Assembly (NCBI GenBank): GCA_041649175.1
Contig: JBAZNR010000001.1
Span: forward strand, 71,461-135,460
Length of the DNA: 64,000 nt
Reading direction: 5' to 3'
Origin: Candidatus Omnitrophota bacterium
GTDB lineage: Bacteria > Omnitrophota > Gorgyraeia > Zapsychrales > JBAZNR01
Shown piece by piece: positions 11,271 to 51,559 of this stretch. Both the position numbers and the translations under genes were made by a program. The notes beneath the pieces are model-generated. The model ran no database searches. It was not told the origin of the DNA and saw only the letters and a list, made by a program, of their open reading frames with translations. Each line of letters begins with the position of its first letter. The first letter of the stretch is position 1.

Positions 11271-12605
11271 TTATCCTTTAACGTTCTTTGCCCGATAACG
11301 CTTTGAAAGACTTTTTCTGCAATCCCATACTTTTTCAAACGCAGTAGCCACATCGCTTAGGTCTTTGCGACTCATCGGCGAGCGCATCAATTCATGAATA
11401 AAAAGTTCCGAATTGTGCACGCGCTCAGCCGTCGGACAAATCCCTTGTCTATAACTCACTTTTTTTGCTGATGCGGATGAGTTAAAAGGAAAACCTTTCT
11501 TTCCAAAAGCAATTCTTTTCTGATACATCGGCTGAAGATAAAGCGGTTTGACATAGCCGCAGCTTATCAAAACCCCTTCTTGTTCGCGCAACTGAGTGCA
11601 GGCAAGTTCCGCTTTCACTGCTTCGATAAAAATATCGCGGCCAAAACCGGCGATCTCTTCTTTAAATTTAAAAGGATGGACATAATACGCATGCGTACAT
11701 CCCGGCCTCATTTTTGGCGCAACGATACAGGGAATTTGAGAAAGCCTGTGCTCCAAATAACGGCAATTTTCTTGCCTCTCCTTAAGCAACTTTTTTAGCT
11801 TCTTTAATTGGCAACGCGTGATAGCCGCCTCAATTTCCGTCATACGAAAATTAAATCCCACCATATTGGAAATATCTTTGACTTTTTTATCAGCTACAAC
11901 CGCTTCCGCGTGATTACGGATAAGCTGCGTTCTTTCTGCCAGCTGAGCATTATTAGTAACAACAATCCCGCCTTCTCCGCAATGAATATGCTTATGATAA
12001 TTGAGCGAATAAACACCGATATCGGCTAAGGTTCCGGCGTACTTTTTCTTATATAAAGCGCCGGGTGCTTGCGCGCAATCCTCAATAACAAGCAAATGAT
12101 GTTTACGTGCGATTTTATTGATCGCCTCGGCATCGTAAGGCAAGCCAAACAGATCAACAACGATGATCGCCTTTGTTCTTGGTGTAATTTTTTGTTCAAC
12201 CGATTTTGGATCCAGACAAAAATAATCTTCTTCGATATCCGCAAAAACAGGTATTGCGCCATAGACAAGAGCCGCTGTTGCCGAAGCGCTCATGGTAAAT
12301 GGCGACACGATCACTTCATCGCCCGGACCAATACCCGCTGCTCCAACCGCCGCATACAATCCTGATGTGCAGGAATTAACTGCTACGGCATATCGAGCGC
12401 CGAAATAATTCGCCCACTCTTTTTCTAAAGCTTGGATTTGCGGCCCGCCGTAAAAATCTTTGTGCCAACACCCTAAAAACCGCGAAAGAATTCCGGAATC
12501 CAAAACATGGGCTACCGCACGTTTTTCTTCTGAGCCGATAACGCGATAAGCCGGAAAAGGTTTTTTGCGGACAGGTTTACCGCCGAAGATGGCTAATGTT
12601 TCCAT
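11271..12605 (-). CDS. DegT/DnrJ/EryC1/StrS-family sugar aminotransferase
   Basis: 444 aa; ...VNSCTSGLYAAVGAAGIGPGDEVIV...SLNYHKHI (PLP Lys region). Confidence 0.8.
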   Translation of the reverse strand: METLAIFGGKPVRKKPFPAYRVIGSEEKRAVAHVLDSGILSRFLGCWHKDFYGGPQIQALEKEWANYFGARYAVAVNSCTSGLYAAVGAAGIGPGDEVIVSPFTMSASATAALVYGAIPVFADIEEDYFCLDPKSVEQKITPRTKAIIVVDLFGLPYDAEAINKIARKHHLLVIEDCAQAPGALYKKKYAGTLADIGVYSLNYHKHIHCGEGGIVVTNNAQLAERTQLIRNHAEAVVADKKVKDISNMVGFNFRMTEIEAAITRCQLKKLKKLLKERQENCRYLEHRLSQIPCIVAPKMRPGCTHAYYVHPFKFKEEIAGFGRDIFIEAVKAELACTQLREQEGVLISCGYVKPLYLQPMYQKRIAFGKKGFPFNSSASAKKVSYRQGICPTAERVHNSELFIHELMRSPMSRKDLSDVATAFEKVWDCRKSLSKRYRAKNVKG

Positions 12606-13740
12606 GACGTTCTCCTATAAGCTTTTTAATAACCTGTTCAATATTTTGGACAGCATTCTCTAAGAAAGAAAAATCAACTTTATCAAACTGACCTTCACTA
12701 AAAAATGCGGATAAGCGCATTTTGAGATCATCAGCTGAAAGAACTCTTTTGACCTTATCCATTCTGCTTAAAATAAAGGGATCTTGCTGTTTTTGACCGA
12801 TCTGAACGCTTAGAAAAGGCTTTTGAGCAATGGCTGCCTCCAAAAGCAACATGGATGAAGCTCCGAGCAGAATATCCGCTCCACAAATTAGCTCTTCCGA
12901 GGAAGACCCGCGCTCTTTGACCACCTTAATAAAATCATTTTTCATGCCCGCGATCATGTCATCCAAAATATTTTCGTTGTCTTTAGGATGAAGACGGAAA
13001 ACAAGGCAAAAATTTTCTTGAGGAAATTCTTTGTGGATAGCGCATAAGGCATCAAAAGTGTTTTTCAGCAATGAAGCTTCGTCATATCCCCAGTGAGCTC
13101 GGCCTTTATCCCCATACATCGTTCGAACAGCCTCTGAAACAACAACCACAACGTGACAGCCCGAAGCTATGCCAAGTTTCTTCCGGTAATTTTTGTCATC
13201 TGTACTTACACGGGTTAGCCTTTGCCGCACTTCAGATAAATGCGGTTGGCCCGTGATCTCTAAAACATCCGAAGAAAATCCCTCTTTGATCATTTCTTTT
13301 TTCGCAAAATCATCCATGATACAAATTTTATCGGGAAGGCATTTCTTTACGCCGTCTTTTGCATCAACAGTGTCTGCGGCAGAAGAAAATCGTAAGCAAT
13401 AACTATTCCAATAATCGAGAATAGCAACGGAAGGAATTCCGGCCTCAGAGGCTGCCTTCCATAAATATTTCTCCGCTAGATCATCCTCACTTGTTCCCGT
13501 AACAATGCAGACAGGATTAATGCTGTGAACAAACTCGCGAATATGTTCATAGCTGATATTTTCTTTCAGCAAATCCTTAATATCCTTAAAATCTATTCCG
13601 GCTTGGGCGTAACGTTGGCACGCTTTATCTTTTCCAAATAGCAAAATACCATATTCTTTCTTCGCGATCATATGATGCGCGAGGGGAATAATGCAGTTAG
13701 CCCCGCCGGGGTCTCTTGAGAAAAATAATATCTTATCCAT
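12577..13740 (-). CDS. hypothetical GT-B fold protein with HP motif
   Basis: 387 aa; FRLHPKD motif plus a Rossmann-like N-terminus MDKILFFSRDPGGANCIIPL. Function not assignable from sequence alone. Confidence 0.3.
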   Translation of the reverse strand: MDKILFFSRDPGGANCIIPLAHHMIAKKEYGILLFGKDKACQRYAQAGIDFKDIKDLLKENISYEHIREFVHSINPVCIVTGTSEDDLAEKYLWKAASEAGIPSVAILDYWNSYCLRFSSAADTVDAKDGVKKCLPDKICIMDDFAKKEMIKEGFSSDVLEITGQPHLSEVRQRLTRVSTDDKNYRKKLGIASGCHVVVVVSEAVRTMYGDKGRAHWGYDEASLLKNTFDALCAIHKEFPQENFCLVFRLHPKDNENILDDMIAGMKNDFIKVVKERGSSSEELICGADILLGASSMLLLEAAIAQKPFLSVQIGQKQQDPFILSRMDKVKRVLSADDLKMRLSAFFSEGQFDKVDFSFLENAVQNIEQVIKKLIGERHGNISHLRR

Positions 13741-20085: not shown

Positions 20086-21240
20086 TTAGCTGGGATTATC
20101 ATAGTTGATCTTAGTTAAATTACCGTGGCGATCTTTGACCAAATGACCGCGCGCATCGCAAACAAACAATTTCTTGTTGGTAAAACGATCGCAAATACTT
20201 GTAAATTCTTCGACCGTCATATCCAATGGTTCTAGGATCGCTTCCAAAGAATACCCCAGATAAGATTTTGGAAATCTTCCGTCGTGACGGCGCACGAGCA
20301 TCATAGCCTCTTCACGCGTCAAACGTCCTCGACGCAAATGAAGGCAGGCCAGATCCGTCGCGCGGCCAAATCCGAACTTAAGGAACTTAAAATAATCGTG
20401 AATGCCCATCTGGCAATTATCCAAGTTTTCATAATTGACTAAAGCGCCTTCAATCGCCGAATGATAGGTTTGCATTCCATGGGCTTGCGCGATCAAAACA
20501 TTTGTATATCCGTCCCACGGCACGTAATATCCTAAAAATAAACCCGTCACGCCCACGCGTTTAAGCTCCTCGTCCGTCGGATAGGTATACTGGATAAGAT
20601 GCTTAGGTTCAATACCTTCCTGCCCGGTAAGATCGGTAACGCGTAAGCCCAGTAACCCTCCAAATTCCTCCAGCCATCTTCGGTCTAAAATATTATGCTC
20701 GGCTGCGGCCGCCGGCCCGCCATATTCGTTCTGAGAATTTTCTCCCCAGATCAAAAGCGGAATATTCATTTGCACGGCCACACGCACCGGAATCGTAAAA
20801 ATAGTTAAGTGTTCCGGCCAAGAAATATCTCCGATCTGTTTAAGCGCAAAACGGTTTATCCGGCGGCGGACAACCGGATTGGTCGTCACTTCGATATAGT
20901 CAACGCCGAGTTTCTTCATATTCTCGATATTTTTTCGCCCGATATCGGATAAATGATCGGTTGTTGCGGTCACGCACAAAGGATTCATTCCAAGTTCCAG
21001 CATTTTAATGACTTGGAAATGACTGTCTTTGCCGCCGGAAACCGGAACCAAACAATCGTAATTATTGCCGTTACGCGAGCGATAGCGCTCTAAAACATTC
21101 AAAAGTTCTTTTTTTCTTACGTTCCAGTCTACCTCTTTGCGTTTTTCAAATGAACGACAAGCATTGCAAATTCCCTGTTCATCGATTTTCAGGTCCGGGC
21201 GGGTTTCCGGCATAACACAGCGACGACAATAGCGCAACAT
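20086..21240 (-). CDS. N-acetyl sugar amidotransferase (WbuX/WbpG/PseA-like, PP-loop ATPase)
   Basis: MLRYCRRCVMPETRPDLKIDEQGICNACR zinc ribbon plus the PP-loop VPVSGGKDS. Confidence 0.75.
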   Translation of the reverse strand: MLRYCRRCVMPETRPDLKIDEQGICNACRSFEKRKEVDWNVRKKELLNVLERYRSRNGNNYDCLVPVSGGKDSHFQVIKMLELGMNPLCVTATTDHLSDIGRKNIENMKKLGVDYIEVTTNPVVRRRINRFALKQIGDISWPEHLTIFTIPVRVAVQMNIPLLIWGENSQNEYGGPAAAAEHNILDRRWLEEFGGLLGLRVTDLTGQEGIEPKHLIQYTYPTDEELKRVGVTGLFLGYYVPWDGYTNVLIAQAHGMQTYHSAIEGALVNYENLDNCQMGIHDYFKFLKFGFGRATDLACLHLRRGRLTREEAMMLVRRHDGRFPKSYLGYSLEAILEPLDMTVEEFTSICDRFTNKKLFVCDARGHLVKDRHGNLTKINYDNPS

Positions 21241-23406: not shown

Positions 23407-25251
23407 TTATTGTAAAGAATCTAGGTAATGGAATTTTCCCTTGCGCTCTAATAATTGCTGATAGCTTCCGGATTCGCACACCTTTCCATCGTCAATGACA
23501 TAGATCATATCAGCCAGCTTTACGGTTGATAGACGGTGCGCGACCATAATGATCGTTAATTCCTTTTTCAATTCACTGATAGTTGACTGAATCATCGCTT
23601 CCGATTCTAAGTCTAATTCGCTGGTCGCCTCATCAAGAATTAGTATCTTTGGCTTCATAAATAAAGACCGTCCTAAAACCAACCGTTGGCGCTGGCCGCC
23701 GGAAAGCTTAATGCCGTTTTCACCGATCAACGTGTTAAGCCCTTGCGGTAGTTGGTCAACAAATTGATCAATACGCACTTTACGGCAAACATCGAGGATC
23801 ACTTCATCAGTTACAGAAGATGCGCCGATCGTCAGATTTTCTTTGATCGTTCCGTCCAAAAGCGACGGCTGTTGATTGACGTAAGCAACGCCATTTCGAA
23901 ACAAATTCTTATCTAGCTCATCATGCCGGATATCCCCATAATAAATAGCGCCTTGGTTGGGTTGGATCAATCCTAAAAGCAGATCGAGCATCGTTGATTT
24001 TCCGACACCGGAACTTCCCACAAAAGCCACGGTTGTTTTAGGCTTAATCGAAAAATTAAGCCCTGTTAAAACCTGCTGTCCGGACGGGTAAGCAAAATGA
24101 ACATCTTGAAACACAATAGGCTGATCACAGAAGAATTTCTTAGAACCGCTTTTTTCTTTATGCTCATCGAGGTCACGCAAATGCTTTTGAAGAGATTTGT
24201 GCATCGGAATATTGCTATCGAGCGCGGCATAGATATCAGAGAGGGCAACAAATTGCGGCGCGATCCGCAAGAAAACAAATAAGATCAAAAGCAGTGTTGC
24301 ATAATTGAGCGAAAGTTGTTGATGGAAAAATAAAAGCCCTATTAAAAATAGCGACGTGCCTAAAACGCTCCAAGAACGCTGGATCTCGATCAAAACGCTT
24401 TGACGCTTGATCTGGCGGCATAGATTTCCGACGATCAAAGAAATCGCATCGGTTAATTTTCCGCTTAAAACGGAAGCCTTAAAGAATTTCTTATTCTGTT
24501 GAAATCCGATAATATCGTTGGAAAGTTTTTTATAATTCTCATTGTAGCTTTCTGCGACCTTTAAAACACGGTTTGAAATTAAAGCGCTCACCAGCAATAA
24601 AAAGGCATAAACAACTGTTGCGGTCATCGTAACAATAAAGGATAACTTCATGGCAATACCAAGAAACGTAATAACTTGAACGAAGTTGATGAAAACCCTT
24701 TGGGCATTGAGATTACATTCGCTGGCAAACTGCGCTTCCCGGATAATGGCATAATACATTCCGCCTGAGTGTTTATCGGTAAGCCACAACCAATCGGCGT
24801 CGGCATAAGCCTTAATGACCTTTTCTCGATACTTTAGCAATAATTCCTCTTTAGCAAAGGTGGCAATAAGCGAAGAAAGAAATACCAAAGCCTGCCCTAT
24901 CAAAATAAGGACGCCTGCTGTCAATAAAACCGAATGGAATGTTAGGTCAATACCTAGAAATTTTAAAGGCACGGCAATGACTTTTAGATAGCTTGTACTG
25001 TCCGCCGCAAAACTTTTTTCCTGCATAAATTCTAAAACCGGGATAAGGATTGGCAGCCCGATAAAACTGGCCAAACTACTGACGATCTGAAAGAAGATCA
25101 CCCAGCGGTAGTTAGGCGACGTCACAATAAGATAGGCGATATACTTAAGCTTAGCCGCCGTTATTTGGCACCCCTTTCGCAACAAAGCAAATAAGCTAAA
25201 AAATATATTAAAAGGTTTTTGAATGGCTTCCATATCGTTATGAGTCTTCAT
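23407..25251 (-). CDS. ABC exporter, fused transmembrane domain and ATPase (MsbA-like type I exporter)
   Basis: 614 aa; six-TM N-terminal half; Walker A GSSGVGKST; signature LSGGQRQRL; Walker B ILILDEAT. Confidence 0.8.
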   Translation of the reverse strand: MKTHNDMEAIQKPFNIFFSLFALLRKGCQITAAKLKYIAYLIVTSPNYRWVIFFQIVSSLASFIGLPILIPVLEFMQEKSFAADSTSYLKVIAVPLKFLGIDLTFHSVLLTAGVLILIGQALVFLSSLIATFAKEELLLKYREKVIKAYADADWLWLTDKHSGGMYYAIIREAQFASECNLNAQRVFINFVQVITFLGIAMKLSFIVTMTATVVYAFLLLVSALISNRVLKVAESYNENYKKLSNDIIGFQQNKKFFKASVLSGKLTDAISLIVGNLCRQIKRQSVLIEIQRSWSVLGTSLFLIGLLFFHQQLSLNYATLLLILFVFLRIAPQFVALSDIYAALDSNIPMHKSLQKHLRDLDEHKEKSGSKKFFCDQPIVFQDVHFAYPSGQQVLTGLNFSIKPKTTVAFVGSSGVGKSTMLDLLLGLIQPNQGAIYYGDIRHDELDKNLFRNGVAYVNQQPSLLDGTIKENLTIGASSVTDEVILDVCRKVRIDQFVDQLPQGLNTLIGENGIKLSGGQRQRLVLGRSLFMKPKILILDEATSELDLESEAMIQSTISELKKELTIIMVAHRLSTVKLADMIYVIDDGKVCESGSYQQLLERKGKFHYLDSLQ

Positions 25252-25804
25252 ATATCAGCTTCGATTTGTCTTTTACTAGGTTTTCAATGATATTAACTTG
25301 ATTGCGGCCAGAATATTTTCCGTTTTTTATGCCCTCTTTACAAATAAGAATGGTACCGATAACTTCTTGTTGAGGAAATTCTGCCAAGTGTTGTATCGTA
25401 TAGTCATGGATCTGCTTTTCTTTAAAAACCATTTCAATCAACAAGGTCAGATCGGATTCGCCGACAACAAAAAAATTCCGCTCTCCTTTTTCATAAAGCG
25501 GAATAACGATTCTTTTGATGGCTTCCTTGATAAGGCCGATAGACCTTAACGTTTTCATCGTGTAGTTCATGGATTTTTGCATCTTTTCGGAGAGCCCTTT
25601 AGAGGTAAGGATGTACTTGACTTTCTTTTGATTTAATTGCTTGATGCGGATAAAACCTTTGGCGATAAGCCGGCGCACCAGCATATTGACCATCCCTAAA
25701 GAAACCTTCATCTGAAGAGACAGATCACGCTGATTCGAAGCCAGATCGGCTCCGATGATATTGACAAGCTCAAATTCCCGTTCGTTGAGTGTGGGTTTAG
25801 GCAT
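25238..25804 (-). CDS. putative winged-helix transcriptional regulator
   Basis: 188 aa; the N-terminal roughly 70 aa are HTH-like (SLQMKVSLGMVNMLVRRLIAKGFI); the C-terminal domain is unknown. It sits directly downstream of a consensus promoter with a palindromic operator. Confidence 0.45.
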   Translation of the reverse strand: MPKPTLNEREFELVNIIGADLASNQRDLSLQMKVSLGMVNMLVRRLIAKGFIRIKQLNQKKVKYILTSKGLSEKMQKSMNYTMKTLRSIGLIKEAIKRIVIPLYEKGERNFFVVGESDLTLLIEMVFKEKQIHDYTIQHLAEFPQQEVIGTILICKEGIKNGKYSGRNQVNIIENLVKDKSKLIYEDS

Positions 25805-25923: not shown

Positions 25924-27069
25924 TCATTTTGTTTTAATTTTCTTGTAAAAAGTCTGCGCGGACACATCCCAACACCAGCCCAAAAAGAAAGCAAAAAGCG
26001 GCATTGTCCAGCCAAATTGTCGCTGAAGGAACCAATATTTATTAATCAAATCTATGGCAATAACACATCCTATTCCAAAAACAATAAAAACGGCGAAAAA
26101 AACGATCTGTGGCCATTTATCTTTATGCGGAATCAACAAGGAAGCCAACATGCCTAAAAGCAGGAAATATAAAGCCTTATTGCCTATCAAATTACCTAAA
26201 ATACCTTTTAGAAAGCCGACAAGATTAGTTACCGGGCTTGGGATAAATTCAAACGTCGGTACAGCGCCAAAGAAAATCCTTTTCTCTTGGGAAAACCCAA
26301 GATTAATAGACGCATACCACAGCCATATTGCAATGGCGAAAACAAAAAACACTCCGAAGAATTTAATGATCGGATAGATTATTTCTTTAGAAAGGTTGCC
26401 TTTATGCCAATTTAGAAATAATGCATAAATAACCGATAGGCCTATAAACAAAATCCCATAAACATGGAAAATGACGACAAAAATCAGAAAAGCACTGATC
26501 CAAAGCTTTCTCGACAAGCTCATTTCCTTATATTTTTCCATCAAAAGTTCAGTAAAATACAGCGTTCCTACGGCGAGTGCTGGCAAAACAGCATAAGATC
26601 TAAATTCAAAAGCCTGAAATATCAATGTCTGATTTAAACAAACAATGCTAAACGCAACCAAATATCCCCAGATTGTCCGATAATACCTATTGCAGAGCAA
26701 ATACAAGAAGTAAAACAGTAAAATGGCCGACAAGACATGTGGGATCGCTAAAAACCATTTGTTCGCCTCGGCAACACGCTCTGCGAGAGCATAATCACGG
26801 ATCAAGGCATCACCAGCAATTCCCTGTTGAGCAAAAATCTTGATAAAAGGATAGGTTAGGATATAGTCGCCGGGAAAACTCGAAAAATCACCATAATGAT
26901 GCCGCAACCAAAAAGGCTTAAACGGCCCTGCAGAAGATTGGAATTGATACATCTCATCATTGGACAGTGTCCGGGAATTCAATTCGTGAGCCCGTAGCCC
27001 CAAAGCCCCAATAAAAAGAAGCGCGCAGATCAGGATCTTTTTATATCGATCATTCCATTTCATAGCCAA
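25924..27069 (-). CDS. polytopic inner-membrane protein; GT-C-like glycosyltransferase or polymerase/ligase suspected
   Basis: 381 aa with at least 10 predicted TM segments; N-terminal periplasmic-loop acidic motif (NDEMYQ). Family not certain. Confidence 0.35.
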   Translation of the reverse strand: MAMKWNDRYKKILICALLFIGALGLRAHELNSRTLSNDEMYQFQSSAGPFKPFWLRHHYGDFSSFPGDYILTYPFIKIFAQQGIAGDALIRDYALAERVAEANKWFLAIPHVLSAILLFYFLYLLCNRYYRTIWGYLVAFSIVCLNQTLIFQAFEFRSYAVLPALAVGTLYFTELLMEKYKEMSLSRKLWISAFLIFVVIFHVYGILFIGLSVIYALFLNWHKGNLSKEIIYPIIKFFGVFFVFAIAIWLWYASINLGFSQEKRIFFGAVPTFEFIPSPVTNLVGFLKGILGNLIGNKALYFLLLGMLASLLIPHKDKWPQIVFFAVFIVFGIGCVIAIDLINKYWFLQRQFGWTMPLFAFFLGWCWDVSAQTFYKKIKTK

Positions 27070-27158: not shown

Positions 27159-28031
27159 ATGCGTAAACTAACAGATATTTTTAAAGAAAAACAGCAGACA
27201 TTCTCTTTTGAACTTTTTCCACCCAAGACGGAAGAAGGCTATCAGAAATTGCTTTCAACGATAAAGCAGCTTTCGGAACTTAAGCCGGATTTTATTTCTG
27301 TCACCTGCGGCGCCGGAGGCGGAACTCGCGCCCGGACTAAAGACATTGTTGACCACATTCAAGAAACCTACCAGATAACCGGCGTTGAGCATTTAACCTG
27401 CATCGGAAATACCAAGGCCGAGATCAAGAAATCACTAGATGATACACAAGCGCGCGGTATTTACAATATCCTAGCTCTTCGCGGCGATCCTCCTCCCAAT
27501 AGCCCGGCTGTTAAACTTGGGAAGGATAATTTTAAATACAGTTATCAGCTTTGTAAATTTATCCGAGCGACTTATGCGGATGATTTTTCAATAGGCGTTG
27601 CCGGCTTTCCGGAAGGACATGTTCTATGCCCGGACCGAGAGCTTGATGCCGATTACTTAAAGATCAAAATGGATGCCGGAGCTGATTATGTCATTACCCA
27701 GCTTTTCTTTAATAACAAAGATTACTTTGATTACGTTAAGCGTTTACGCCGACGAGGAATTTTTGCCCGCGTCATTCCCGGAATTATCCCCATCACGGAT
27801 TATCTCGGCATTTTAAGATTCTGCCAAAAATGTGGAACAAGCGTACCCAAAGAAGTTCAAGAAGTTTTTGCGCCGATCCAAACTGACCCGCAAGCTGTAA
27901 GCGAGGCCGGAATAAAATTTGCTATTCGTCAATGCCGTGAATTATTGGAAAATGGCGCTCCGGGTTTGCATTTTTACACGCTCAATAAGGCTTCACCGGT
28001 AGACATTATCTTAAAAGAAGTAAGAAAATAA
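27159..28031 (+). CDS. metF: 5,10-methylenetetrahydrofolate reductase
   Basis: MRKLTDIFKEKQQTFSFELFPPKTEEGYQKL...SVTCGAGGGTRA. Only plus-strand gene in the window. Confidence 0.9.
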   Translation: MRKLTDIFKEKQQTFSFELFPPKTEEGYQKLLSTIKQLSELKPDFISVTCGAGGGTRARTKDIVDHIQETYQITGVEHLTCIGNTKAEIKKSLDDTQARGIYNILALRGDPPPNSPAVKLGKDNFKYSYQLCKFIRATYADDFSIGVAGFPEGHVLCPDRELDADYLKIKMDAGADYVITQLFFNNKDYFDYVKRLRRRGIFARVIPGIIPITDYLGILRFCQKCGTSVPKEVQEVFAPIQTDPQAVSEAGIKFAIRQCRELLENGAPGLHFYTLNKASPVDIILKEVRK

Positions 28032-29119: not shown

Positions 29120-30133
29120 TTAACTTTTGGTTTCTAAATTAACTTCCCGTAAATATTTTGCCGCCAAATCAGGCGATGTCGGTACCAGATAAAATCCCGT
29201 TCCCCATTCAAATCCGGCCACGCGTGTTAATTTCGGAATAATTTCAATATGCCAATGATAACTTTCGTTATTTTCATAACCGACCGGTGCCGTATGCAAA
29301 AAGAAATTATACGACGGATTATTTAACGCTACCTTCATCCGGCGCAGCACCTCGCCTAAACTGCAAGACAGATGATACTGCTCCTCTTCGGTAATGCTGT
29401 TAAACGGTGCGCTGTGTTTCTTGGGGATGATCCAGGTTTCAAAGGGATATCGCGGAACGTAGGGGCAGAAACAAATAAAATCCTTATTCTCGGCAACGAT
29501 CCTTTCTTTATCCTGATACTCCTGATTGATCATATCGCAGAAAATGCACCTCCCGCGATATTCATAATAATACTTCGAACCTTCCAATTCTTCAAGAACA
29601 TATTTGGGGACCATCGGAAGAGCGATGAGTTGTGTATGCCCATGCTCCAAGGAAGCACCGGCAGAATCGCCAAAATTCTTGAAAATAAGGATATATTTAA
29701 AACGTTTATCTTCGGCTAAGCTTTTAGACCGGCTTTGATATTTCTTAACAACCGATAAAATCTCTTCATTGGTAAGATCCGCCAAGCTTTTACGATGATT
29801 CGGTGTTTCAATGATGATCTCATGAGCCCCGATGCCGTTCATCGTATCAAAGATCCCAAGACCAGAACGTTTCAATTCCCCTTCGATCCTTAAAACCGGA
29901 AATTTATTAGGGATCACCCGAACCATCCAGCCTTGCGTATCCGCTTTTGTATTGTGCGGACGAACGGCTTCGATTTCCGACGGAGTTTGATGTTCCCGGC
30001 CATAGCAAAATTGACAGATCGCTTCCTGCTTATAGTGATGTTCTTCTTTGTCGAAGTCTTGCGGGCCCCAAGAATCTTTTGTGTTAACAACCACCCAGCG
30101 GCCGACAATGGGATCTTTGCGTAATTCCGCCAT
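29120..30133 (-). CDS. galT: galactose-1-phosphate uridylyltransferase-family HIT enzyme (paralogue A, catalytic motifs intact)
   Basis: CQFCYG zinc motif; FKNFGDSAGASLEHGHTQ aligns with E. coli FENKGAAMGCSNPHPHGQ (HxH nucleophile present). Confidence 0.8.
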   Translation of the reverse strand: MAELRKDPIVGRWVVVNTKDSWGPQDFDKEEHHYKQEAICQFCYGREHQTPSEIEAVRPHNTKADTQGWMVRVIPNKFPVLRIEGELKRSGLGIFDTMNGIGAHEIIIETPNHRKSLADLTNEEILSVVKKYQSRSKSLAEDKRFKYILIFKNFGDSAGASLEHGHTQLIALPMVPKYVLEELEGSKYYYEYRGRCIFCDMINQEYQDKERIVAENKDFICFCPYVPRYPFETWIIPKKHSAPFNSITEEEQYHLSCSLGEVLRRMKVALNNPSYNFFLHTAPVGYENNESYHWHIEIIPKLTRVAGFEWGTGFYLVPTSPDLAAKYLREVNLETKS

Positions 30134-31162
30134 TTAGATCTCTACCCTTCTTAGGAATTCCGCCGTCTTTTCCGGCGGAATTGAACAAATATAAAATCCG
30201 GTACCTTTTTCAAATCCGGCTACATGCGTTAAGCGAGGCATCACTTCAATGTGCCAATGATAATCTCCTTCAATGGTGTTCCACTCGGTGCTTTTTGATT
30301 TTCCTCGTCGAAACGGTGCTGAATGGATCACGTAATTGTAGGCCGGGTCATTTAATCCTATTTTTAATTTCTGTAAGACTTTTTTCATCATTTCGGCTAA
30401 ATCATATTCAAATCCAATGATCCCTTTGGAAAAATCACAACTATGTTTCTTGGGTAAGATCCATAGCTCGAACGGAAATCTGGCGGCAAAAGGCGAAATA
30501 GCCAAAAAATGGTCGGATTCTAAAACCACTCTGGCTTTAGACTCAAGTTCCTGCTTAATGAGATCGCAATAAACGCATCGTTCGTGGTAAGAGAAATACC
30601 GTCGAGCTCCGACCAATTCTTCTTTAACGCGCATCGGATTAACGGGAGTGGCGATGATCTGAGAACGCGTGTGGCGGATATTTCCTCCGCCGGCTGACCA
30701 TCCGTAATTTTTAAACGGCAGGACATATTTAAAACGCGGATCCTTTTCCAGATCGTTGATGCGCACAACATATGTTTCAAAAACAAGCTTGATCTGCGCG
30801 GCATCTAGATCAGCCATATTGGCAATGTGTTCGGGGGTTTCAATGATAACCTCATGTGCCCCGACATTATCCATCACATCATAAAGCCCATGGCCGCGGC
30901 GCTGAAGATTGCCTTCGATCTTTAAAGCCGGAGCTATGTTAGGGACAACACGGACTTTCCAGTGAGGACTGTTGGGCGCAAAATGGCTTCTGACCGCGTA
31001 AATCTCGGGGGGAGTTTTTGACTCTTTATGTTCGCAAAATGGGCATTCACCTTCATCGATGGTTTTATGATTAGAATCGATGAAGGTTCCCGGCCGACGG
31101 GCTCGTTCCGTGGAAACAATGATCCATCGTCCGATTATAGGGTCTTTGCGTAGTTCTGGCAT
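30134..31162 (-). CDS. GalT-family HIT protein (paralogue B, nucleophile motif altered)
   Basis: CPFCEH zinc motif; FKNYGWSAGGGNIRHTRSQ has only one His where HxH is expected. Directly abuts paralogue A. Confidence 0.75.
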   Translation of the reverse strand: MPELRKDPIIGRWIIVSTERARRPGTFIDSNHKTIDEGECPFCEHKESKTPPEIYAVRSHFAPNSPHWKVRVVPNIAPALKIEGNLQRRGHGLYDVMDNVGAHEVIIETPEHIANMADLDAAQIKLVFETYVVRINDLEKDPRFKYVLPFKNYGWSAGGGNIRHTRSQIIATPVNPMRVKEELVGARRYFSYHERCVYCDLIKQELESKARVVLESDHFLAISPFAARFPFELWILPKKHSCDFSKGIIGFEYDLAEMMKKVLQKLKIGLNDPAYNYVIHSAPFRRGKSKSTEWNTIEGDYHWHIEVMPRLTHVAGFEKGTGFYICSIPPEKTAEFLRRVEI

Positions 31163-31225: not shown

Positions 31226-32161
31226 TTATCCAAGTTTGAAGCCCTCTTTGATCCGCGACCCCATCAAAAAGCTTTGCGTACTCATCGGTTTTGCGGATTC
31301 AAGATGAACTTGGCGGACTAACAAAACCCCTTTTCCTGTCGCCACCGCAAAGTTTTCCTTTGCGATTGAGATAATTTTCCCGCAGTCAGCTTTTGAAAAA
31401 CTTCCCTCCCCGCAATCCGCCTCCAAAATCTTGAGGACTTTCCCGCTACAATGCGTAAATGCCGCCGGCCAAGGCAAAAGCCCGCGAACCAAACGATGAA
31501 TAGCCGCGGCATCCTTATTCCAATCAATCATCCCATGTTCTTTAGTTAATTTTGGCGCTAATGTCACTAATTTTTCATTTTGGGCAACACATTGATGAGC
31601 ATTATCCCTGATCTTTTCTATTATTTCACACAGAAGTTTAGAACCGAGAGAGACCATTTTAGCTCGAAGCGTTATGGATGTGTCTTTTGAGTCGATAGGA
31701 AGTTCTTTTTGCGCAATAATGTCACCGCCGTCCATTATTTCATTCATTTTTATAATGGAAATACCCGTTATCTCATCTCCGTTAACGATCGCCCAATTGA
31801 TAGGAGCCGCTCCGCGGTATTTAGGAAGAAGTGACCCGTGAACATTAACGCAGAATAATTTTGGCAGGACAAGAATTTCTCTAGGCAAGATCTTTCCATA
31901 AGCGACGACAACAAATAAGTCAGCTTCAAGATCTTTTAATTTCTTTTGAAAATGAATTTCCTTTAAATCGACAGGCTGGAGAACCGGAATATGATATTTT
32001 AAAGCGCATTCTTTCGTTGCCGGCGCCGCCACCTGAAGTCCTCTGCCCTTTGGTTTATCGGGCTGAGCAATGCAGGCAGCAACTTCATATCCGCGTTCGA
32101 CAAGCTCTTTTAAGTGAGCAACCGCAAAATCATCGCTTCCAAAAAAAATAATTCGCATCAA
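31226..32161 (-). CDS. fmt: methionyl-tRNA formyltransferase
   Basis: MMRIIFFGSDDFAVAHLKELV...NVHGSLLPKYRGAAPINWAIVNGD. Confidence 0.9.
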   Translation of the reverse strand: MMRIIFFGSDDFAVAHLKELVERGYEVAACIAQPDKPKGRGLQVAAPATKECALKYHIPVLQPVDLKEIHFQKKLKDLEADLFVVVAYGKILPREILVLPKLFCVNVHGSLLPKYRGAAPINWAIVNGDEITGISIIKMNEIMDGGDIIAQKELPIDSKDTSITLRAKMVSLGSKLLCEIIEKIRDNAHQCVAQNEKLVTLAPKLTKEHGMIDWNKDAAAIHRLVRGLLPWPAAFTHCSGKVLKILEADCGEGSFSKADCGKIISIAKENFAVATGKGVLLVRQVHLESAKPMSTQSFLMGSRIKEGFKLG

Positions 32162-32170
32162 TCATCACCT

Positions 32171-34024
32171 TTATGAATCTACATTAATACTGATATTAAC
32201 ATCTTTTTTTCGTTTAAATGATTTTAACGCTTTTTGAAGCACAAGCCGCATTTTTTTATGGGATTTTGATTTCAAAAGGATCGTAAACCGGTATTTGCCG
32301 CGCAACCTCGGAATAAAATCCGGTTGCGGATCCAAGATCTCAACTTGTTTTCCTTTATTGTGTTCATTCAACAACTCATGGAAAATTTGGATCTGTTCAC
32401 GGGCTATTTCTTCTTTAACCGCGCGCAACCCAACGGAAACAAAACAAAATAGCGGCGGAAACTTCAGTTCCTTACGAAATTTGATCTCTTCTTTGTAAAA
32501 TTTATCAAAATCTGACTTTAAAGCCGCCTGTAGGCAATAGTTATCCGGAACATGCGTTTGAACGATCAGCTTTTCTTTTGCCATGTGCCGAAAATCCATC
32601 AGCAAGGCAAATGTTTTTTGGCCAGAGCGAAAATCCGCACGGTTTAATTCCGCATCAAGCTGCATAATGCCGATCAAATCAACCGATAATGCGTCATGCA
32701 TTTTTAAAACCGCTTGAGTCGCGATAAGAATATCAAAATCTTGTGGAAATATCGCTGATTCCTTGTCAAAATGCGCCACCTTAGAGCCCGGAAAAAGACG
32801 GGCGATCTCGCTTTCCAACTTCTCAATTCCCATCCCGCTATAACGCAAATAAGAAGTATTACAGCTCGGACAAATGGTCGGCGCGGCGGCTGTAAACTGG
32901 CAATAACGGCAAATCATTTTCTTTTCTTCGAAAAGATAAGTTAAATGCGTATCGCACCTTCGGCATTTCATGGTATATCCACACTTGGTGCAACGGATAA
33001 GCGTGCTAAAACCTTTGCGATTCATAAAAAGAACGGTCTTGCCTTTTTTGCTTAAGATTTTCTCAATAGCCGCTCGCAGAGGAAAAGAGATCAGAGAAGT
33101 TTTTCGCGGATTAAACGCCGACATATCAACAACTTGTACCGGCGTCAAAGGTAAATTCTGAGCGGAAAGATCGACAAATCTTATCTTCTCTTTTGATGCT
33201 TGATAAAGCATTTCTACCGATGGGACCCGGCTTACGAAAAGAATATCCGCGTTCTCAATATCTGAGCGCATAAAAGCGATTTGGCTTACATGATAAAACG
33301 GCGATTGATCCTGCTTATAGGCCGCATTATTTTCATCCATAATGACAATAAGCCCTAAATTGACAACAGGAGCAAAAATGGTGGAACGCACACCAACGGC
33401 AACTTTAACTTTTCCTTCTTTGATCTTGGTCCACTTTTCCAGCTCTGCTTTGGGCGTTGAAGCGCGGTCTAAAACAACGATTTCTTCGGTCAAATTCTCT
33501 TTTAATACCCTCACCGCATCATCTAAAAGCCAATTTTCTGGAACGAGAAGAATAATGCCTTTTTTATTAAGTAATGTTTTTTGAATATTTTCCAAGACAA
33601 AGGCCCAGGTTTTGTTTTGATCCTGGCCGCGCAAAAGAATAATTTCTTTTTCTTTTGAAACAACCGGAGGATTTTCACCGCCGATCATTTCCGTCGGTTT
33701 AGGTTTTCGCAAAGCAACCGGAAGGCTTAATTCGATCGCTTCGCCCCAAGAACAAAAATAATATTCGGCCATCTGTTTTGCCAAAAGAAGGTGCGAAGGG
33801 CCCAGAAGTGGGGTTACATCCAGCAGAGAAAGGATTGGCTTTAAGAATTTAAATTTACTTTTTTGGGATAATCCGACAATGAATCCAACCCGCTTTGTCT
33901 TTCCGAAAGAAACGACAACACGTTTTCCGACGGAAATTCCCTGAGAAAGAGATTCGGGAATTGAATAGTCAAACGGGCCTTCCACCGGAAGGCCGACTGT
34001 AACCTGGGCTACCGCATACTTCAT
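32171..34024 (-). CDS. priA: primosomal protein N' homologue (PriA) with degenerate helicase motifs
   Basis: N-terminal 3'-DNA-binding domain; Cys4-Cys4 zinc region (CTKCG...CRRC...CRYC...CPSC). Walker A is replaced by LLRGQDQNKTW, DExH by IMDENNAAY, motif III by FVSRVPS, and the motif VI arginines are absent. Confidence 0.85.
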   Translation of the reverse strand: MKYAVAQVTVGLPVEGPFDYSIPESLSQGISVGKRVVVSFGKTKRVGFIVGLSQKSKFKFLKPILSLLDVTPLLGPSHLLLAKQMAEYYFCSWGEAIELSLPVALRKPKPTEMIGGENPPVVSKEKEIILLRGQDQNKTWAFVLENIQKTLLNKKGIILLVPENWLLDDAVRVLKENLTEEIVVLDRASTPKAELEKWTKIKEGKVKVAVGVRSTIFAPVVNLGLIVIMDENNAAYKQDQSPFYHVSQIAFMRSDIENADILFVSRVPSVEMLYQASKEKIRFVDLSAQNLPLTPVQVVDMSAFNPRKTSLISFPLRAAIEKILSKKGKTVLFMNRKGFSTLIRCTKCGYTMKCRRCDTHLTYLFEEKKMICRYCQFTAAAPTICPSCNTSYLRYSGMGIEKLESEIARLFPGSKVAHFDKESAIFPQDFDILIATQAVLKMHDALSVDLIGIMQLDAELNRADFRSGQKTFALLMDFRHMAKEKLIVQTHVPDNYCLQAALKSDFDKFYKEEIKFRKELKFPPLFCFVSVGLRAVKEEIAREQIQIFHELLNEHNKGKQVEILDPQPDFIPRLRGKYRFTILLKSKSHKKMRLVLQKALKSFKRKKDVNISINVDS

Positions 34025-35109
34025 ATGATGAGTTTAATAATATCGCTGGTCGCAAAGGGACGCGCCAGACTTTTGGTTCGCCCTTTCGCAGAGAGAAGAT
34101 ATTCCGGATTAGAGCTGAGTTTTTTTAATTCGGCGATAACATCCTTTAGCTGAGTACTGCTGCTGCCGATCCCATAACTGCGCAAGACCAAAACATTGTT
34201 CATTTCCTGCCCCGGAATAGGGCAAATTAAAATAAGAGGAAGTTTGCTAACTAACGCCTCGCAAATGGATAAGCCGCCGGGCTTTGTCACCATAACATCG
34301 GCAACTGCCATTAATTCATTCATATTATTGACCAGGCCGAATACTTTAACGCCCGGAAGATTTTTTTTGCTCAAGCGTTCAAATAATTCCTGATTTCGCC
34401 CGCATACCACAAGCACCTGGTAATCACAAAGCGCTTGCGCGATCTCTTCTAAGGGGCCCATCCCAAAAGAGCCCGTCGCTAATAAAACGGTAAAAACACC
34501 TTTTTTGATCTGTAGTTTATCTTTAAGTGCCTCGCGGTCAGGATGATTTGAGAATTTATCATCCGTCGGGATCCCCGTCACAAAGATCTTTTCTCGCTCA
34601 ACGCCTAATTCCAAAAGTTTGTTTTGAGTATATTCGCAGGCTACCGCGTACTTGTCAACTCCATCAGCTAACCAAATTCTGTGCGCGTCAAAATCCGTCA
34701 CCACGCAGATGATCTTTGATTTGATCAAGCCTTGTTTTTTTAAAGAGCTTGCAACTTCATGAGGGAAAAAATGAGTTGATACGATGTAATCAAATTGCTC
34801 CGCAATGAGAAAGCGGTTCAACTTCTTGGCATTGATCTCATTAAAGATCCGTCGTGACGCTCTTACAAAGGATTGCATGCACGGCAGGTCCGTTAACCAA
34901 AAAACAAATCCCCAGGCCCAAGGAAATTTGGTAACAAGAATAGTGTATGTTTTCTGATAAGAGTTCTTATAAAATTGGCTGGTATAATCCAAGGCATCGG
35001 CAAAAACAACTTGCGGACCACCGGGTGAGGCTTTAAGAAGATTGGCGACAGCTTCAGCAGCTTTAGTGTGCCCTGCTCCCGCAGCAGCATGAATGGCAAG
35101 TATTTTCAT
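34021..35109 (-). CDS. GT28-family glycosyltransferase (MGDG synthase/UgtP/MurG-like)
   Basis: MKILAIHAAAGAGHTKAAEAVANLL N-terminus plus a C-terminal GT-B domain. Confidence 0.65.
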   Translation of the reverse strand: MKILAIHAAAGAGHTKAAEAVANLLKASPGGPQVVFADALDYTSQFYKNSYQKTYTILVTKFPWAWGFVFWLTDLPCMQSFVRASRRIFNEINAKKLNRFLIAEQFDYIVSTHFFPHEVASSLKKQGLIKSKIICVVTDFDAHRIWLADGVDKYAVACEYTQNKLLELGVEREKIFVTGIPTDDKFSNHPDREALKDKLQIKKGVFTVLLATGSFGMGPLEEIAQALCDYQVLVVCGRNQELFERLSKKNLPGVKVFGLVNNMNELMAVADVMVTKPGGLSICEALVSKLPLILICPIPGQEMNNVLVLRSYGIGSSSTQLKDVIAELKKLSSNPEYLLSAKGRTKSLARPFATSDIIKLII

Positions 35110-35653
35110 TGAGAATAATCCTGGTTGCTTCCAAAAGGTTTTTAACCGTGTAATCGGGCTTGACGCCTAGTTTTTTCATTTCTCGTCGGTGGTCAATACC
35201 CGATAAAACAAGGATCGTTTTTAATCCCGCGTTGCGCCCGGCTTGCATATCAAAGTGAGCATCCCCGACAAAGAAACTTTTGTCGGCACTGCGGATATCC
35301 TTGTTGATCATTCCAAATGCACGTTTAATGGAGCCGATCTTGGGCTTACGGCAATCGCAATTTTGTTCGGAGGTATGCGTACAATAAAATATCTTTTTAA
35401 TTCGGCCGCCTGTTTTCTTAATTTCTTTAAGCATATGTGCGGTGATCTGATCAAGCTTAGCCTTTGTATAGACGCCACGGGCAACGCCGGCTTGATTAGA
35501 AACAATAAAGATCATATATCCGGCATCAGTTAAATCTTTGATAGCCTTTAAAGCCCCTGGAATAAAATGGAAATCCTTCACCTTCGTCACATATTTTCCA
35601 AGCCCGGGAAATTTATTAATAACGCCATCTCTATCTAAAAAAATGATTTTCAT
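35063..35653 (-). CDS. gmhB: D-glycero-D-manno-heptose 1,7-bisphosphate phosphatase (HAD-IIIA)
   Basis: MKIIFLDRDGVIN...SNQAGVARG...GDAHFDMQAG...CDCRKPK zinc site. Confidence 0.75.
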   Translation of the reverse strand: MKIIFLDRDGVINKFPGLGKYVTKVKDFHFIPGALKAIKDLTDAGYMIFIVSNQAGVARGVYTKAKLDQITAHMLKEIKKTGGRIKKIFYCTHTSEQNCDCRKPKIGSIKRAFGMINKDIRSADKSFFVGDAHFDMQAGRNAGLKTILVLSGIDHRREMKKLGVKPDYTVKNLLEATRIILNENTCHSCCCGSRAH

Positions 35654-46875: not shown

Positions 46876-47412
46876 CTACTTTTGATTATAGAAGTTTCCG
46901 TGTTCTATCAGAAGAGTGGATTTATTATCTTTGCGCTCAAAGGCATGTTTGTAGGCCGGAAAAATATCTTCCGGTTCATTGAGCTCAACAACATCAATGG
47001 TGGTAAACATTTTTCTAAAGGCATCCGCGTAGTTTCCGACGTGCTGATGGCCGGGATGCACGGGGCTATCGGGTCCGGTTGCCACCCGAATTAAGACTTT
47101 AGGAATCAACTGATTAGCGCTGATCGCCGGTATTTTATCCAGCATATTGACCATATCTGAAACCGCAATGAGCAGAAAATTTTGCCGCGGATAAACCGAG
47201 ATAGGAATATACCCCGCTAGGGATAATCCGATCGTAAATTGCATTTGAAAACTTTCATTGATCGGCATTTCTAAAGTCCGCTCGGGCGATACATCGCGAA
47301 GCGTTTGGAACATAAAAGTCCCTGGCCCGGCAACAGTTTGCCCGACAAAAATAGACTTAGGCTGCTGGGCCAACCATTCCATCGTGCGTTTTAATTCGTC
47401 AAAATATTTCAT
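46876..47412 (-). CDS. thiamine-diphosphate enzyme, pyrimidine-binding subunit (E1-beta / transketolase C-section-like, minimal)
   Basis: 178 aa; Pyr-domain-like; lacks the C-terminal TK_C domain of canonical E1-beta. Confidence 0.6.
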   Translation of the reverse strand: MKYFDELKRTMEWLAQQPKSIFVGQTVAGPGTFMFQTLRDVSPERTLEMPINESFQMQFTIGLSLAGYIPISVYPRQNFLLIAVSDMVNMLDKIPAISANQLIPKVLIRVATGPDSPVHPGHQHVGNYADAFRKMFTTIDVVELNEPEDIFPAYKHAFERKDNKSTLLIEHGNFYNQK

Positions 47413-49939: not shown

Positions 49940-51559
49940 TTATTTAATATTTTTTAGTATGGCTTTAGAAATATTTTCAGCCAATAATTTATTTCCCTGG
50001 GCCGTGCAATGGCCAAAATCACCGGCAAAACGATCGTAGAAATACTGGTCATATCCGTTTTTGTTAACAGCGTCCTGAAAAACTGCCCGATTATCAACAA
50101 AAATAATTCCCGTGGAAGATAGATCTTTTCTCAATAGCGCAATATCGCGCAAAGGATACTGAGCGCAGATAAGCTTTATTCCTTTTTTAAGGACAATTTC
50201 TTTTAATTGTTGGTAGTTGGACATCGTTGGAGAATCATGTTTGACCAGCCTTTTCTGCCGTAAATTGATCAATTGGTTTGCCAAATCTTTCTTTCCCTGA
50301 GACTCATAATAGGAAGCCAGCCGCGCATAGATATCGGCCGACGAACCGGAAAACTGCCCGGACGTTAACCTCAAAAAAAGATCCTGAAAAACTTTTTGCG
50401 CTTCTTCCGGTTTATTATTTTCCTGCAAAATAAAACCTAGTTCCAAAATCCAGACCGGAACCTGTACAGATTCGGGATTAGCATCAATGGCTTTTTTAAA
50501 TAAATCCTCCAGGAGATCTTCTTTGGCGTTTTTCCGATAACAATAGGCTATCTTGCCGTAAACCCAAACATTTTCAGGATTAGTTTCCAGTTGTTTTTGG
50601 TACATCAGTTCTGCTTCATGATATCTTTGCTGTTCTAAATAAACATCGGCCAAATTACCGTAAATCTCTAAATTATCCGGAACAACAGCCAAGATCCGCT
50701 TATAAAGATTTTCGGCTTGAGAATATTTCGCCTGCATTTTATAGCAGTTTGCTAATTGATACGTTGCCACGAACTGATGTTCATCCGAGAGCTTTCCCAA
50801 TTCGATGACTTTTTTAAACGCGTCTTCACCTTTTTTGTAATCCGCCCATTCACGATAATAAAGGCCTAAATAAAAGTAGGCTTGCGCATTATTGCCATCC
50901 AGCTCGATTGCTCTTAAATAAGCTTCTTTCTCCTTGTCGAACTTTTGGACCATTTTATACATACGCCCTAATTCCATGTATTTTTCTGATGATGGAGACA
51001 GAGAGATCTTTTTTTCAAAATCTTTGACTTTTCTCTCCAATGTTTCCATAATCAATTCCTCTTTTTTGTGCTCCGCATGAGACCAGATCAACCTAGCCAA
51101 CTTATAAACCTTCAATCCATCCAAGAAAGACCTCTGCAGATTTTTCTCTTGAGCTTTAAATCGCAAGGTATCCGAAGAGTCATTAATGCCCATCATCGTA
51201 ACGATCATCTTTGGATGATATTCGTCGATCCAGGTTTCCAAATACGAAACGATATCGTATGTATTCATCGCCGGGACACCTTTATTGATAACGGAAAAAC
51301 GAACGGAAGGATTTTTGGCATTGAGGATTTCTTCTAATTGCCGAGGATACGCGTGCGCGCCGCCCAAAGCCGTGGTAGATTCTCCCAGACAAAGGATCCG
51401 GTATTCTCCGTTGCCGCAGGCAGAAGCACGGTTAAGGCTTTCCTGAAAGAACAGAAAAGCAAATCCGCCGATCCTTAAAGCTATTTCAAGGAAAGCAATA
51501 GCTAAGAAAAGGCCGAAACATATAAGGAATAACTTTTGTCTTAAAGTAGTTTGAGGCAT
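49940..51559 (-). CDS. membrane-anchored SGNH/GDSL-family hydrolase interrupted by a TPR-repeat domain (paralogue 2)
   Basis: Same architecture: YRILCLGESTTALGG, MMGINDS, central TPR repeats, FAGDFGHCTAQGN. The catalytic segments are about 55% identical to paralogue 1. Confidence 0.7.
   Translation of the reverse strand: MPQTTLRQKLFLICFGLFLAIAFLEIALRIGGFAFLFFQESLNRASACGNGEYRILCLGESTTALGGAHAYPRQLEEILNAKNPSVRFSVINKGVPAMNTYDIVSYLETWIDEYHPKMIVTMMGINDSSDTLRFKAQEKNLQRSFLDGLKVYKLARLIWSHAEHKKEELIMETLERKVKDFEKKISLSPSSEKYMELGRMYKMVQKFDKEKEAYLRAIELDGNNAQAYFYLGLYYREWADYKKGEDAFKKVIELGKLSDEHQFVATYQLANCYKMQAKYSQAENLYKRILAVVPDNLEIYGNLADVYLEQQRYHEAELMYQKQLETNPENVWVYGKIAYCYRKNAKEDLLEDLFKKAIDANPESVQVPVWILELGFILQENNKPEEAQKVFQDLFLRLTSGQFSGSSADIYARLASYYESQGKKDLANQLINLRQKRLVKHDSPTMSNYQQLKEIVLKKGIKLICAQYPLRDIALLRKDLSSTGIIFVDNRAVFQDAVNKNGYDQYFYDRFAGDFGHCTAQGNKLLAENISKAILKNIK

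Follow-up and report, generated by a model that had tools for sequence, protein, structure and literature searches.

Can PriA, which sets the restart of replication in motion, lose its helicase motor and still serve the cell? The question is raised by a gene in a 64-kb stretch of DNA (contig JBAZNR010000001.1; hereafter the window) from a Candidatus Omnitrophota bacterium, a representative of a phylum of mostly ultra-small, probably host-dependent bacteria. The gene encodes a 617-residue protein, 100% identical to NCBI MFA5059093.1, which is annotated as "primosomal protein N'" of Candidatus Omnitrophota bacterium. A first-pass annotation of this DNA had described the product as a helicase-dead, loader-only PriA similar to that of Deinococcus, in an organism unrelated to Deinococcus. 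The organism is indeed unrelated, as Omnitrophota belong to the PVC group. The functional proposal also appears to stand: the lost ATP site, the conserved modules and purifying selection point to an ATP-independent scaffold that would recognize forks and load the replicative helicase DnaB, a reading to which we assign a probability of roughly 0.7.

The protein is a member of the PriA family. It scores 354.4 bits against the NCBIfam model TIGR00595 (priA; cut-off, 230.35), and its closest relatives with solved structures are the PriA proteins of K. pneumoniae and E. coli (E ~5e-70). Pfam detects the PriA_3primeBD domain (PF17764, residues 7-102, E = 7.6e-25) and the PriA_C domain (PF18074, residues 529-616, E = 6.9e-16); the DEAD match is sub-threshold (17 bits; cut-off, 26), Helicase_C has no Pfam match in the protein, and every one of the longer PRK05580 sub-models remains below its cut-off. 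An AlphaFold2 model has a predicted local distance difference test score (pLDDT) of 92.9 and a predicted template modeling score of 0.91, its lowest-confidence block being the linker formed by residues 108-126 (pLDDT 73). In a Foldseek search with this model, the nine top PDB matches were all PriA (best, 8FAK; template modeling [TM] score, 0.89), and the next match was Mfd with a TM score of 0.35. The overall fold of the predicted structure is that of PriA. The better fit to 8FAK than to the apo structure 6DCR (0.79) suggested a pseudohelicase locked in the pore-closed pose with the cysteine-rich region (CRR) up; we rejected this as a specific property, because a canonical Omnitrophota PriA modeled in the same way also prefers 8FAK (0.87 vs 0.75).

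What this PriA has lost is the ATP site. With E. coli MG1655 PriA as the reference (numbering of the full protein), Walker A G224-VTGSG-K230-T231 aligns to G133-QDQNK-T139-W140, motif II D320-E-E-H323 to M229-D-E-N232, and motif III S356-A-T to S265-R-V; motif V TQMLAKGHH has become TQAVLKMHD, where only TQ is kept, and motif VI QVAGRAGR is replaced by D477..H480-M481 and a 5-residue gap. These are essentially the replacements listed in the first-pass annotation, which gave Walker A as RGQDQNKTW (our alignment places GQDQNKTW opposite GVTGSGKT), DEEH as DENN (the MDEN of our alignment with a one-residue shift) and SAT as SRV, and reported the QxxGRxGR arginine fingers as absent. Two further absences had been overlooked: the segment containing the adenine-recognizing Q motif (E. 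coli L199 to A206) is deleted, and the winged-helix (WH) domain (E. coli ~110-198) is missing, with E. coli residues ~110-218 facing gaps in the alignment. As a result, 19 residues connect the N-terminal domain to strand beta-1 of lobe 1. Nor is there an intact P-loop elsewhere: none of the patterns [AG]xxxxGK[ST], DExH and GRxGR occurs anywhere in the 617-residue protein or in the other reading frames of positions 33300-33900. The set of superfamily 2 motifs that forms the ATPase site (Q, I, II, III, V and VI) is therefore not present, and with K230 replaced by T139 and the Walker B residue D320 by M229, the protein classifies as a pseudohelicase. Given that the P-loop Gly, Lys and Thr, the Walker B Asp and the arginine fingers are gone, it is very probably unable to bind or hydrolyze ATP.

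The DNA-recognition and zinc modules, in turn, are kept, as the first reading of the sequence had claimed for the N-terminal 3'-DNA-end-binding domain (3'BD), the double CxxC zinc region and the C-terminal domain (CTD). In addition to the Pfam matches to the two terminal domains, the 3'BD pocket residues D17, Y18 and K61 of E. coli align to D19, Y20 and K62, and all eight cysteines of the CRR (C345, C348, C354, C357, C372, C375, C385 and C388), the predicted Zn ligands, align to their E. coli counterparts and are invariant in alignment A1. Functions of the retained parts are known from E. coli PriA: the aromatic-rich loop crosslinks to DNA (PMC5175346), R427/R428 of motif IV bind lagging-strand single-stranded DNA (ssDNA) inside the PriA pore, and the CRR and CTD are partner-docking modules (PMC13594977).

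The degenerate state is not peculiar to a single genome; a large clade of Omnitrophota shares it. All 120 of the closest database relatives (44-55% identity, ~615 residues) have the same degenerate motifs, with the consensus LLHDQSRDKRW vs LLAGVTGSGKT in E. coli; chance matches to the P-loop pattern occur in 4 of the 120, each at a different position. We then searched 1.84 billion cluster representatives exhaustively with HMMER and took the 150 top hits. Among them, 93 full-length representatives of 50%-identity clusters, reaching down to 32% identity, have no P-loop and no GRxGR, and their motif VI is deleted. A scan of GTDB species genomes yielded at least 561 loci with a relative of the query; in the best 80, which were kept, all full-length genes (76/76) are degenerate. 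These 80 loci are mostly titled Omnitrophota or Omnitrophica, and the remainder have generic titles, such as "uncultured Planctomycetales" or "uncultured bacterium". Many co-assembly bins with CAY and CAZ accessions in ENA that are titled "uncultured Planctomycetales bacterium" (L004-L006, L011, L014-L017, L019, L022, L023, L028 and others) have the locus typical of Omnitrophota (HAD phosphatase, monogalactosyldiacylglycerol [MGDG] synthase, degenerate priA, fmt). These bins probably belong to Omnitrophota and bear a label that is misassigned or was set by default.

Purifying selection acts on the degenerate gene. The ratio of nonsynonymous to synonymous substitution rates (dN/dS, Nei-Gojobori method), determined for ten pairs of close relatives, is 0.06-0.21 for the whole gene and 0-0.10 in most pairs for the CRR. 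In the dead lobe 1 it is 0.07-0.33, above that of lobe 2 in 9 of 10 pairs, but still far under 1. On the one hand, unusual motifs in a metagenome-assembled genome, taken alone, could be blamed on an assembly or sequencing error or on a gene in the course of being lost. On the other hand, the 617-codon frame is intact, full-length orthologues in the same state are found in hundreds of independent assemblies, the low dN/dS is matched by a confidently predicted fold, and translational coupling with the neighboring genes is conserved. Thus, the artifact or pseudogene explanation is refuted.

Which residues selection still holds was seen by comparing alignment columns in 30 canonical and 93 degenerate PriA representatives. 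The 13 ATP-site columns (G224, G229, K230, T231, D320, E321, A357, T358, Q580, G583, R584, G586 and R587) are 100% conserved in canonical proteins, whereas their commonest residue reaches merely 15-55% in the degenerate clade. The columns of the DNA-binding parts behave differently. The Y18 column (Y20 here) is 100% in both sets, the Pro of motif Ia (P162) is 100% in canonical and 91% in degenerate proteins, the Phe of motif Ib (F217) is 100% and 97%, and the Thr of motif V (T436) is 100% and 90%. The aromatic-rich loop YKQ...P.Y is at 93-97% in canonical and 80-100% in degenerate proteins (Y, K and Q 80-85%, P242 100%, Y244 97%), and the eight Cys columns are at 100% and 92%, respectively. 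The D17 column (D19), which in canonical proteins is mostly Thr (40%), is 97% Asp in the degenerate clade. In the 76 orthologues, the position of the motif IV Arg (R336) is always Arg or Lys.

The dead pocket itself has gained new conservation across the orthologues (L002-L081) at residues 139-140 (33605-33610). The K230 position is Arg in 50/76, the same substitution as in E. coli priA300 and in Deinococcus, and the T231 position is Trp in 67/76 (88%; W140 here). The sole conserved residue of motif II is E231 (E. coli E322, the second Glu of DEEH), which is present in 97% of the degenerate clade. Arg and Trp at the former Lys and Mg-Thr positions, together with this Glu, may stabilize the empty nucleotide cleft, which the Arg and Trp may plug and rigidify. 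The same conservation shows that the old pocket is not wholly free to drift, and one could argue from it that the protein is still an NTPase by way of a noncanonical site, either one completed by a partner or the second, weaker nucleotide site whose existence in E. coli PriA has been suggested but whose location was never found (PMC5778457). However, the protein lacks both arginine fingers, the Q motif and motif III as well as the P-loop Gly and the Walker B Asp, most of these columns drift within the clade, the few P-loop-like matches among relatives are scattered, and the single substitution K230R is sufficient to abolish activity in E. coli PriA (PMC4504706, PMC5778457). A surviving NTPase is thus very improbable.

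Where did such a protein come from? In the window, the gene order is HAD phosphatase, MGDG synthase, priA, fmt, two GalT/HIT-like genes and gap. The MGDG-synthase-like glycosyltransferase is directly upstream of priA in 69/71 degenerate loci, and fmt is directly downstream in 58/60. The nearest canonical PriA (P0187) has 678 residues; its 120 best relatives (~665 residues) retain the P-loop, DExH and GRxGR in 118/118, and their organism labels, where given, are Omnitrophota or Omnitrophica, plus one Desantisbacteria. Three canonical priA genes (L082, L086 and L087) lie in the order HAD phosphatase, MGDG synthase, uracil-DNA glycosylase (UDG, PF03167), priA, (def), fmt, (x), GalT x2, gap. The GalT/HIT-like pair keeps its place in most Omnitrophota loci, degenerate and canonical. 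This shared conserved locus makes the genes orthologues rather than paralogues: the degenerate gene is the positional orthologue of canonical priA. Because other Omnitrophota have an intact PriA at the same locus, the degenerate state is not phylum-wide, and the loss of the motor arose within Omnitrophota, independently of Deinococcus-Thermus. Common descent with the pseudohelicase clade of that group is not what we found, as the nearest relatives are canonical Omnitrophota PriAs. The canonical Omnitrophota PriAs also have no WH domain, which is present in E. coli and Klebsiella PriA but is not universal and hence does not define the PriA family. They keep LTxEQ, whereas the degenerate clade is devoid of both. 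The degenerate form was derived from a canonical short PriA without a WH domain and is ancestral to a large Omnitrophota clade. One locus (L048), with a PriA 36% identical to ours, was considered as a second priA of the same genome and rejected: its GC content is 50% vs 42%, its tetranucleotide correlation is 0.72 vs 0.99 within the window, and there is no nucleotide match. It is a syntenic orthologue, hence not a second copy.

The surroundings of priA differ in two genes. In each of the six loci fetched, whether canonical or partly decayed, UDG lies directly upstream of priA; it has this place in none of the 71 fully degenerate loci, nor in the window. The peptide deformylase gene (def) lies between priA and fmt in L082 and L086 and adjoins priA in 0/60 degenerate loci. 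Such remodeling of the locus, and a deletion of the Q motif and shortening of motifs V and VI that exceed simple inactivation, would fit a protein that has left restart for another function, such as the protection or marking of abandoned forks or the prevention of illegitimate DnaB loading. We consider this improbable, because the CRR and CTD are among the best-conserved parts, with the CRR under especially low dN/dS, the degenerate gene replaces the lineage's sole known priA locus, and the Deinococcus pseudohelicase still binds DnaB (PMC4504706).

Partly decayed ATPase motifs were found in 18 representatives, for example GVGGSGKT with motif VI lost, GVRGSGKS with DQEH, GKPGSGKM, GITDQAKI and GGSENSKM. 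The three partly decayed loci examined adjoin UDG, and in one of them the whole series fmt, GalT x2, gap, pgk is present. Of the intermediates, only P0156 and the P0240 cluster have an Omnitrophota label. A first neighbor-joining tree ordered the sequences from canonical through intermediates to degenerate, as in a single stepwise decay. We rejected this ladder after masking the motif columns; it had arisen partly as an artifact, from those columns and because sequences were sampled by their similarity to the query. In the masked tree, the degenerate sequences group together, with P0170 inside (bootstrap, 24/60), and the P0187-type Omnitrophota PriAs are their nearest canonical relatives, while most intermediates scatter over different canonical groups (P0200, P0213, P0218, P0261, P0263, P0206, P0239 and P0245 group with several canonical lineages). 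The fully degenerate form thus probably had a single origin, with weak support. In uncultivated lineages the PriA ATPase has probably decayed in part on several occasions, which suggests that such bacteria lose the PriA motor repeatedly and that this loss is no oddity of Deinococcus.

The closest known parallel is PriA of D. radiodurans (Lopper, Boone & Morrow 2015, PMC4504706). Its Walker motifs are degenerate and it shows neither ATPase nor helicase activity, yet it is able to bind ssDNA, forks and DnaB. The two proteins share a poor match to Walker A and B, a replaced catalytic Lys (by Arg in Deinococcus-Thermus), a kept DNA-binding architecture, absence of ATPase and helicase activity (shown there and predicted here) and a presumed role in DnaB reloading. 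However, erosion has gone further in Omnitrophota, where the Q-motif segment, the P-loop glycines and motif VI are gone and motifs III and V are altered. The Omnitrophota protein is also short, at 617 residues, and has no WH domain. It comes from a different phylum with, judged by nearest relatives, an independent origin; Deinococcus PriA was compared via the literature. A second parallel is provided by the E. coli K230R/A/D (priA300) mutants, in which the loader is separable from the motor. K230R has no ATPase, helicase or translocase activity, yet it assembles primosomes and supports restart in vivo via PriA-PriB, not via PriA-PriC (PMC5778457, PMC13594977). Unlike the Omnitrophota protein, these are laboratory point mutants of an intact helicase, which need PriA-PriB-DnaT and fail with PriC. 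The canonical short Omnitrophota PriAs (P0187; P0356, GCA_028715645.1; P0312, GCA_042567545.1) share with the degenerate form the locus, the domain order, the lack of a WH domain and 8FAK as the best structural match, and are ~36-38% identical to the window's protein; they differ in their length and in having LTxEQ, GxTGSGKT, DEEH, SAT, TQMxxKGxDFP and QVxGRAGRG. Finally, E. coli PriA with the WH domain deleted (6DCR, our second-best structural match) also folds without this domain, although its deletion was engineered and its ATPase core is intact.

How, then, might a motorless PriA work? We propose that at abandoned forks or D-loops the 3'BD pocket would capture the nascent leading-strand 3' end. 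The ssDNA of the lagging-strand template would be held in a passive clamp by the dead lobes and the CRR through motifs Ia and Ib, the aromatic-rich loop (IIa), motif IV and the TQ of motif V, and the surfaces of the CRR and CTD would recruit DnaB, directly or via a loader or SSB. Because the motor is lost, the protein would act only on forks with a pre-existing lagging-strand ssDNA gap or else would need help from another helicase. The CRR of E. coli PriA moves up, so that the pore closes on 9 nt of lagging-strand ssDNA and docking sites become accessible, and the authors of that study propose that the helicase generates this ssDNA when the lagging arm is duplex (PMC13594977).

This E. coli mechanism also gives rise to a different proposal, that the degenerate PriA is a fork sensor only and one half of a two-protein restart initiator. 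If the helicase is needed to make at least 9-11 nt of lagging-strand ssDNA for CRR closure and partner docking (PMC13594977), an organism without a PriA helicase is expected to compensate, and canonical PriAs do exist in the phylum. However, canonical and degenerate PriAs occupy the same locus in different genomes and are orthologues, no second priA-like gene is present in the window or the 80 loci (~1.1 Mb in total), and compensation may be unnecessary, given that priA300 cells of E. coli differ little from wild type (PMC5778457). As a weak test, the long contigs with a degenerate PriA were compared in length with those that have a canonical one, and no two were equal. We regard such a division of labor as unlikely.

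Several observations nevertheless weigh against the scaffold proposal. The Zn_ribbon_PriA match (PF18319) reaches 22.1 bits, under the gathering cut-off of 26. The position of H455, which stabilizes the CRR-UP state in E. coli, is Leu here and in 32/76 orthologues, and because of this replacement CRR dynamics may differ from those of E. coli. The helicase-dead E. coli PriA needs PriB, and by analogy a partner could be missing in Omnitrophota. The evidence on a second priA covers the window and the 80 loci, and that on a compensating helicase (such as RecG, Rep or UvrD) covers the window. Lastly, we infer both the loss of ATPase activity and the retention of fork binding by comparison of sequences.

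The coordinates of priA, its parts and other genes are collected in Table 1. Most of the window is taken up by a long envelope-polysaccharide cluster, with pseudaminic/nonulosonic-acid genes, numerous glycosyltransferases and genes for an LptD-like protein and an MsbA-like exporter; when all of its 64 kb were surveyed with Pfam and NCBIfam, no other replication, repair or helicase gene was detected. Nearly all gene-like open reading frames (ORFs) of at least 110 codons are on the minus strand, with the MTHFR gene as the clear exception, and the GC skew is negative in every 2-kb bin of positions 1-64000; the window is probably one 64-kb co-oriented block that reflects the direction of replication. 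In or beside the polysaccharide cluster, seven ORFs of 178-537 codons have no Pfam match at E <= 1e-6, and the 537-codon ORF is also without an NCBIfam match.

Table 1. Features of the degenerate priA gene, its surroundings and the related UDG genes (positions refer to the window unless a locus is named)
Feature	Residues	Position	Strand	Basis or remark
priA pseudohelicase gene	1-617	32171..34024	-	Single uninterrupted ORF, 617 codons, ATG start, TAA stop at 32171-32173
3'BD	1-107	33704..34024	-	PF17764; pocket D19, Y20, K62
19-residue linker in place of WH domain and Q-motif segment	108-126	33647..33703	-	Alignment to E. coli PriA
RecA-like lobe 1 without ATP site	127-302	33119..33646	-	AlphaFold2 secondary structure and residue map
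Walker A remnant GQDQNKTW	133-140	33605..33628	-	Alignment to E. coli PriA
Motif II remnant MDEN	229-232	33329..33340	-	Alignment to E. coli PriA
Kept aromatic-rich loop/motif IIa YKQDQSPFYH	236-245	33290..33319	-	Column conservation
Motif III remnant SRV	265-267	33224..33232	-	Alignment to E. coli PriA
RecA-like lobe 2	303-519	32468..33118	-	Alignment to E. coli PriA
Motif IV MNRKGF, kept in lobe 2		33008-33025	-	Alignment to E. coli PriA
Motif V, TQ kept		32693-32719	-	Alignment to E. coli PriA
Motif VI, arginine fingers deleted		32567-32605	-	Alignment to E. coli PriA
CRR, eight Zn-ligand Cys	C345 to C388	32861..32992	-	Alignment with E. coli C436...C479
CTD	520-617	32174..32467	-	PF18074
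HAD phosphatase		35063-35653		Upstream of MGDG-synthase-like gene
MGDG-synthase-like glycosyltransferase		34021..35109	-	PF06925 and PF04101; directly upstream of priA, stop overlaps priA start (ATGA)
fmt (methionyl-tRNA formyltransferase)		31226..32161	-	Formyl_trans_N and Formyl_trans_C; directly downstream of priA
Two tandem GalT/HIT-like paralogues		29120-30133, 30134-31162		GalP_UDP_transf, DUF4921, DUF4931; between fmt and gap
MTHFR		27159-28031	+	
Seven ORFs without Pfam match		8687-9634, 9655-11268, 12577-13740, 20086-21240, 25238-25804, 25924-27069, 46876-47412		
Two adjacent TPR-repeat proteins, ~540 residues		48294-49925, 49940-51559		Flank polysaccharide cluster and LptD-like gene
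LptD-like gene		57334-59478		
Two adjacent GGDEF diguanylate cyclases, one with GAF		60516-61529, 61514-62818		Flank polysaccharide cluster and LptD-like gene
UDG genes in other loci		L082:5294-5986, L084:5330-5998, L085:643-1359, L086:5326-5997, L087:5319-5996, L088:14-856		PF03167

Full-text literature searches turned up neither a report of PriA pseudohelicases other than that of Deinococcus nor a paper that links PriA with Omnitrophota, and the Omnitrophota genomics papers searched are silent on it. The case described here is the second natural loss of the PriA motor after Deinococcus, independent of it, much deeper in its erosion and widespread in Omnitrophota species genomes. Genome annotation gives no warning that such proteins cannot be helicases; the pipelines name them "primosomal protein N'" or "replication restart helicase". 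Intact orthologues at the same locus in sister lineages provide a natural before-and-after comparison. Selection has retained the pocket for the 3' end, the aromatic-rich loop and motifs Ia, Ib and IV together with the CRR and CTD, whereas the Q motif has drifted or been deleted, as have motifs I, II, III and VI; this pattern amounts to a residue-level map of motor-independent PriA function. The question that this raises is how DnaB is reloaded, as the one characterized route for a helicase-dead PriA is that of PriB and DnaT. It is tempting, if tentative, to think that a major Omnitrophota clade runs replication restart on a permanently motorless PriA with no second copy. If so, fork recognition and partner docking would be the indispensable core of PriA, as shown in nature, and because helicase-dead PriA in E. 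coli depends on PriB, DnaB in these bacteria would be loaded either directly from PriA or through an undiscovered PriB-like adaptor.

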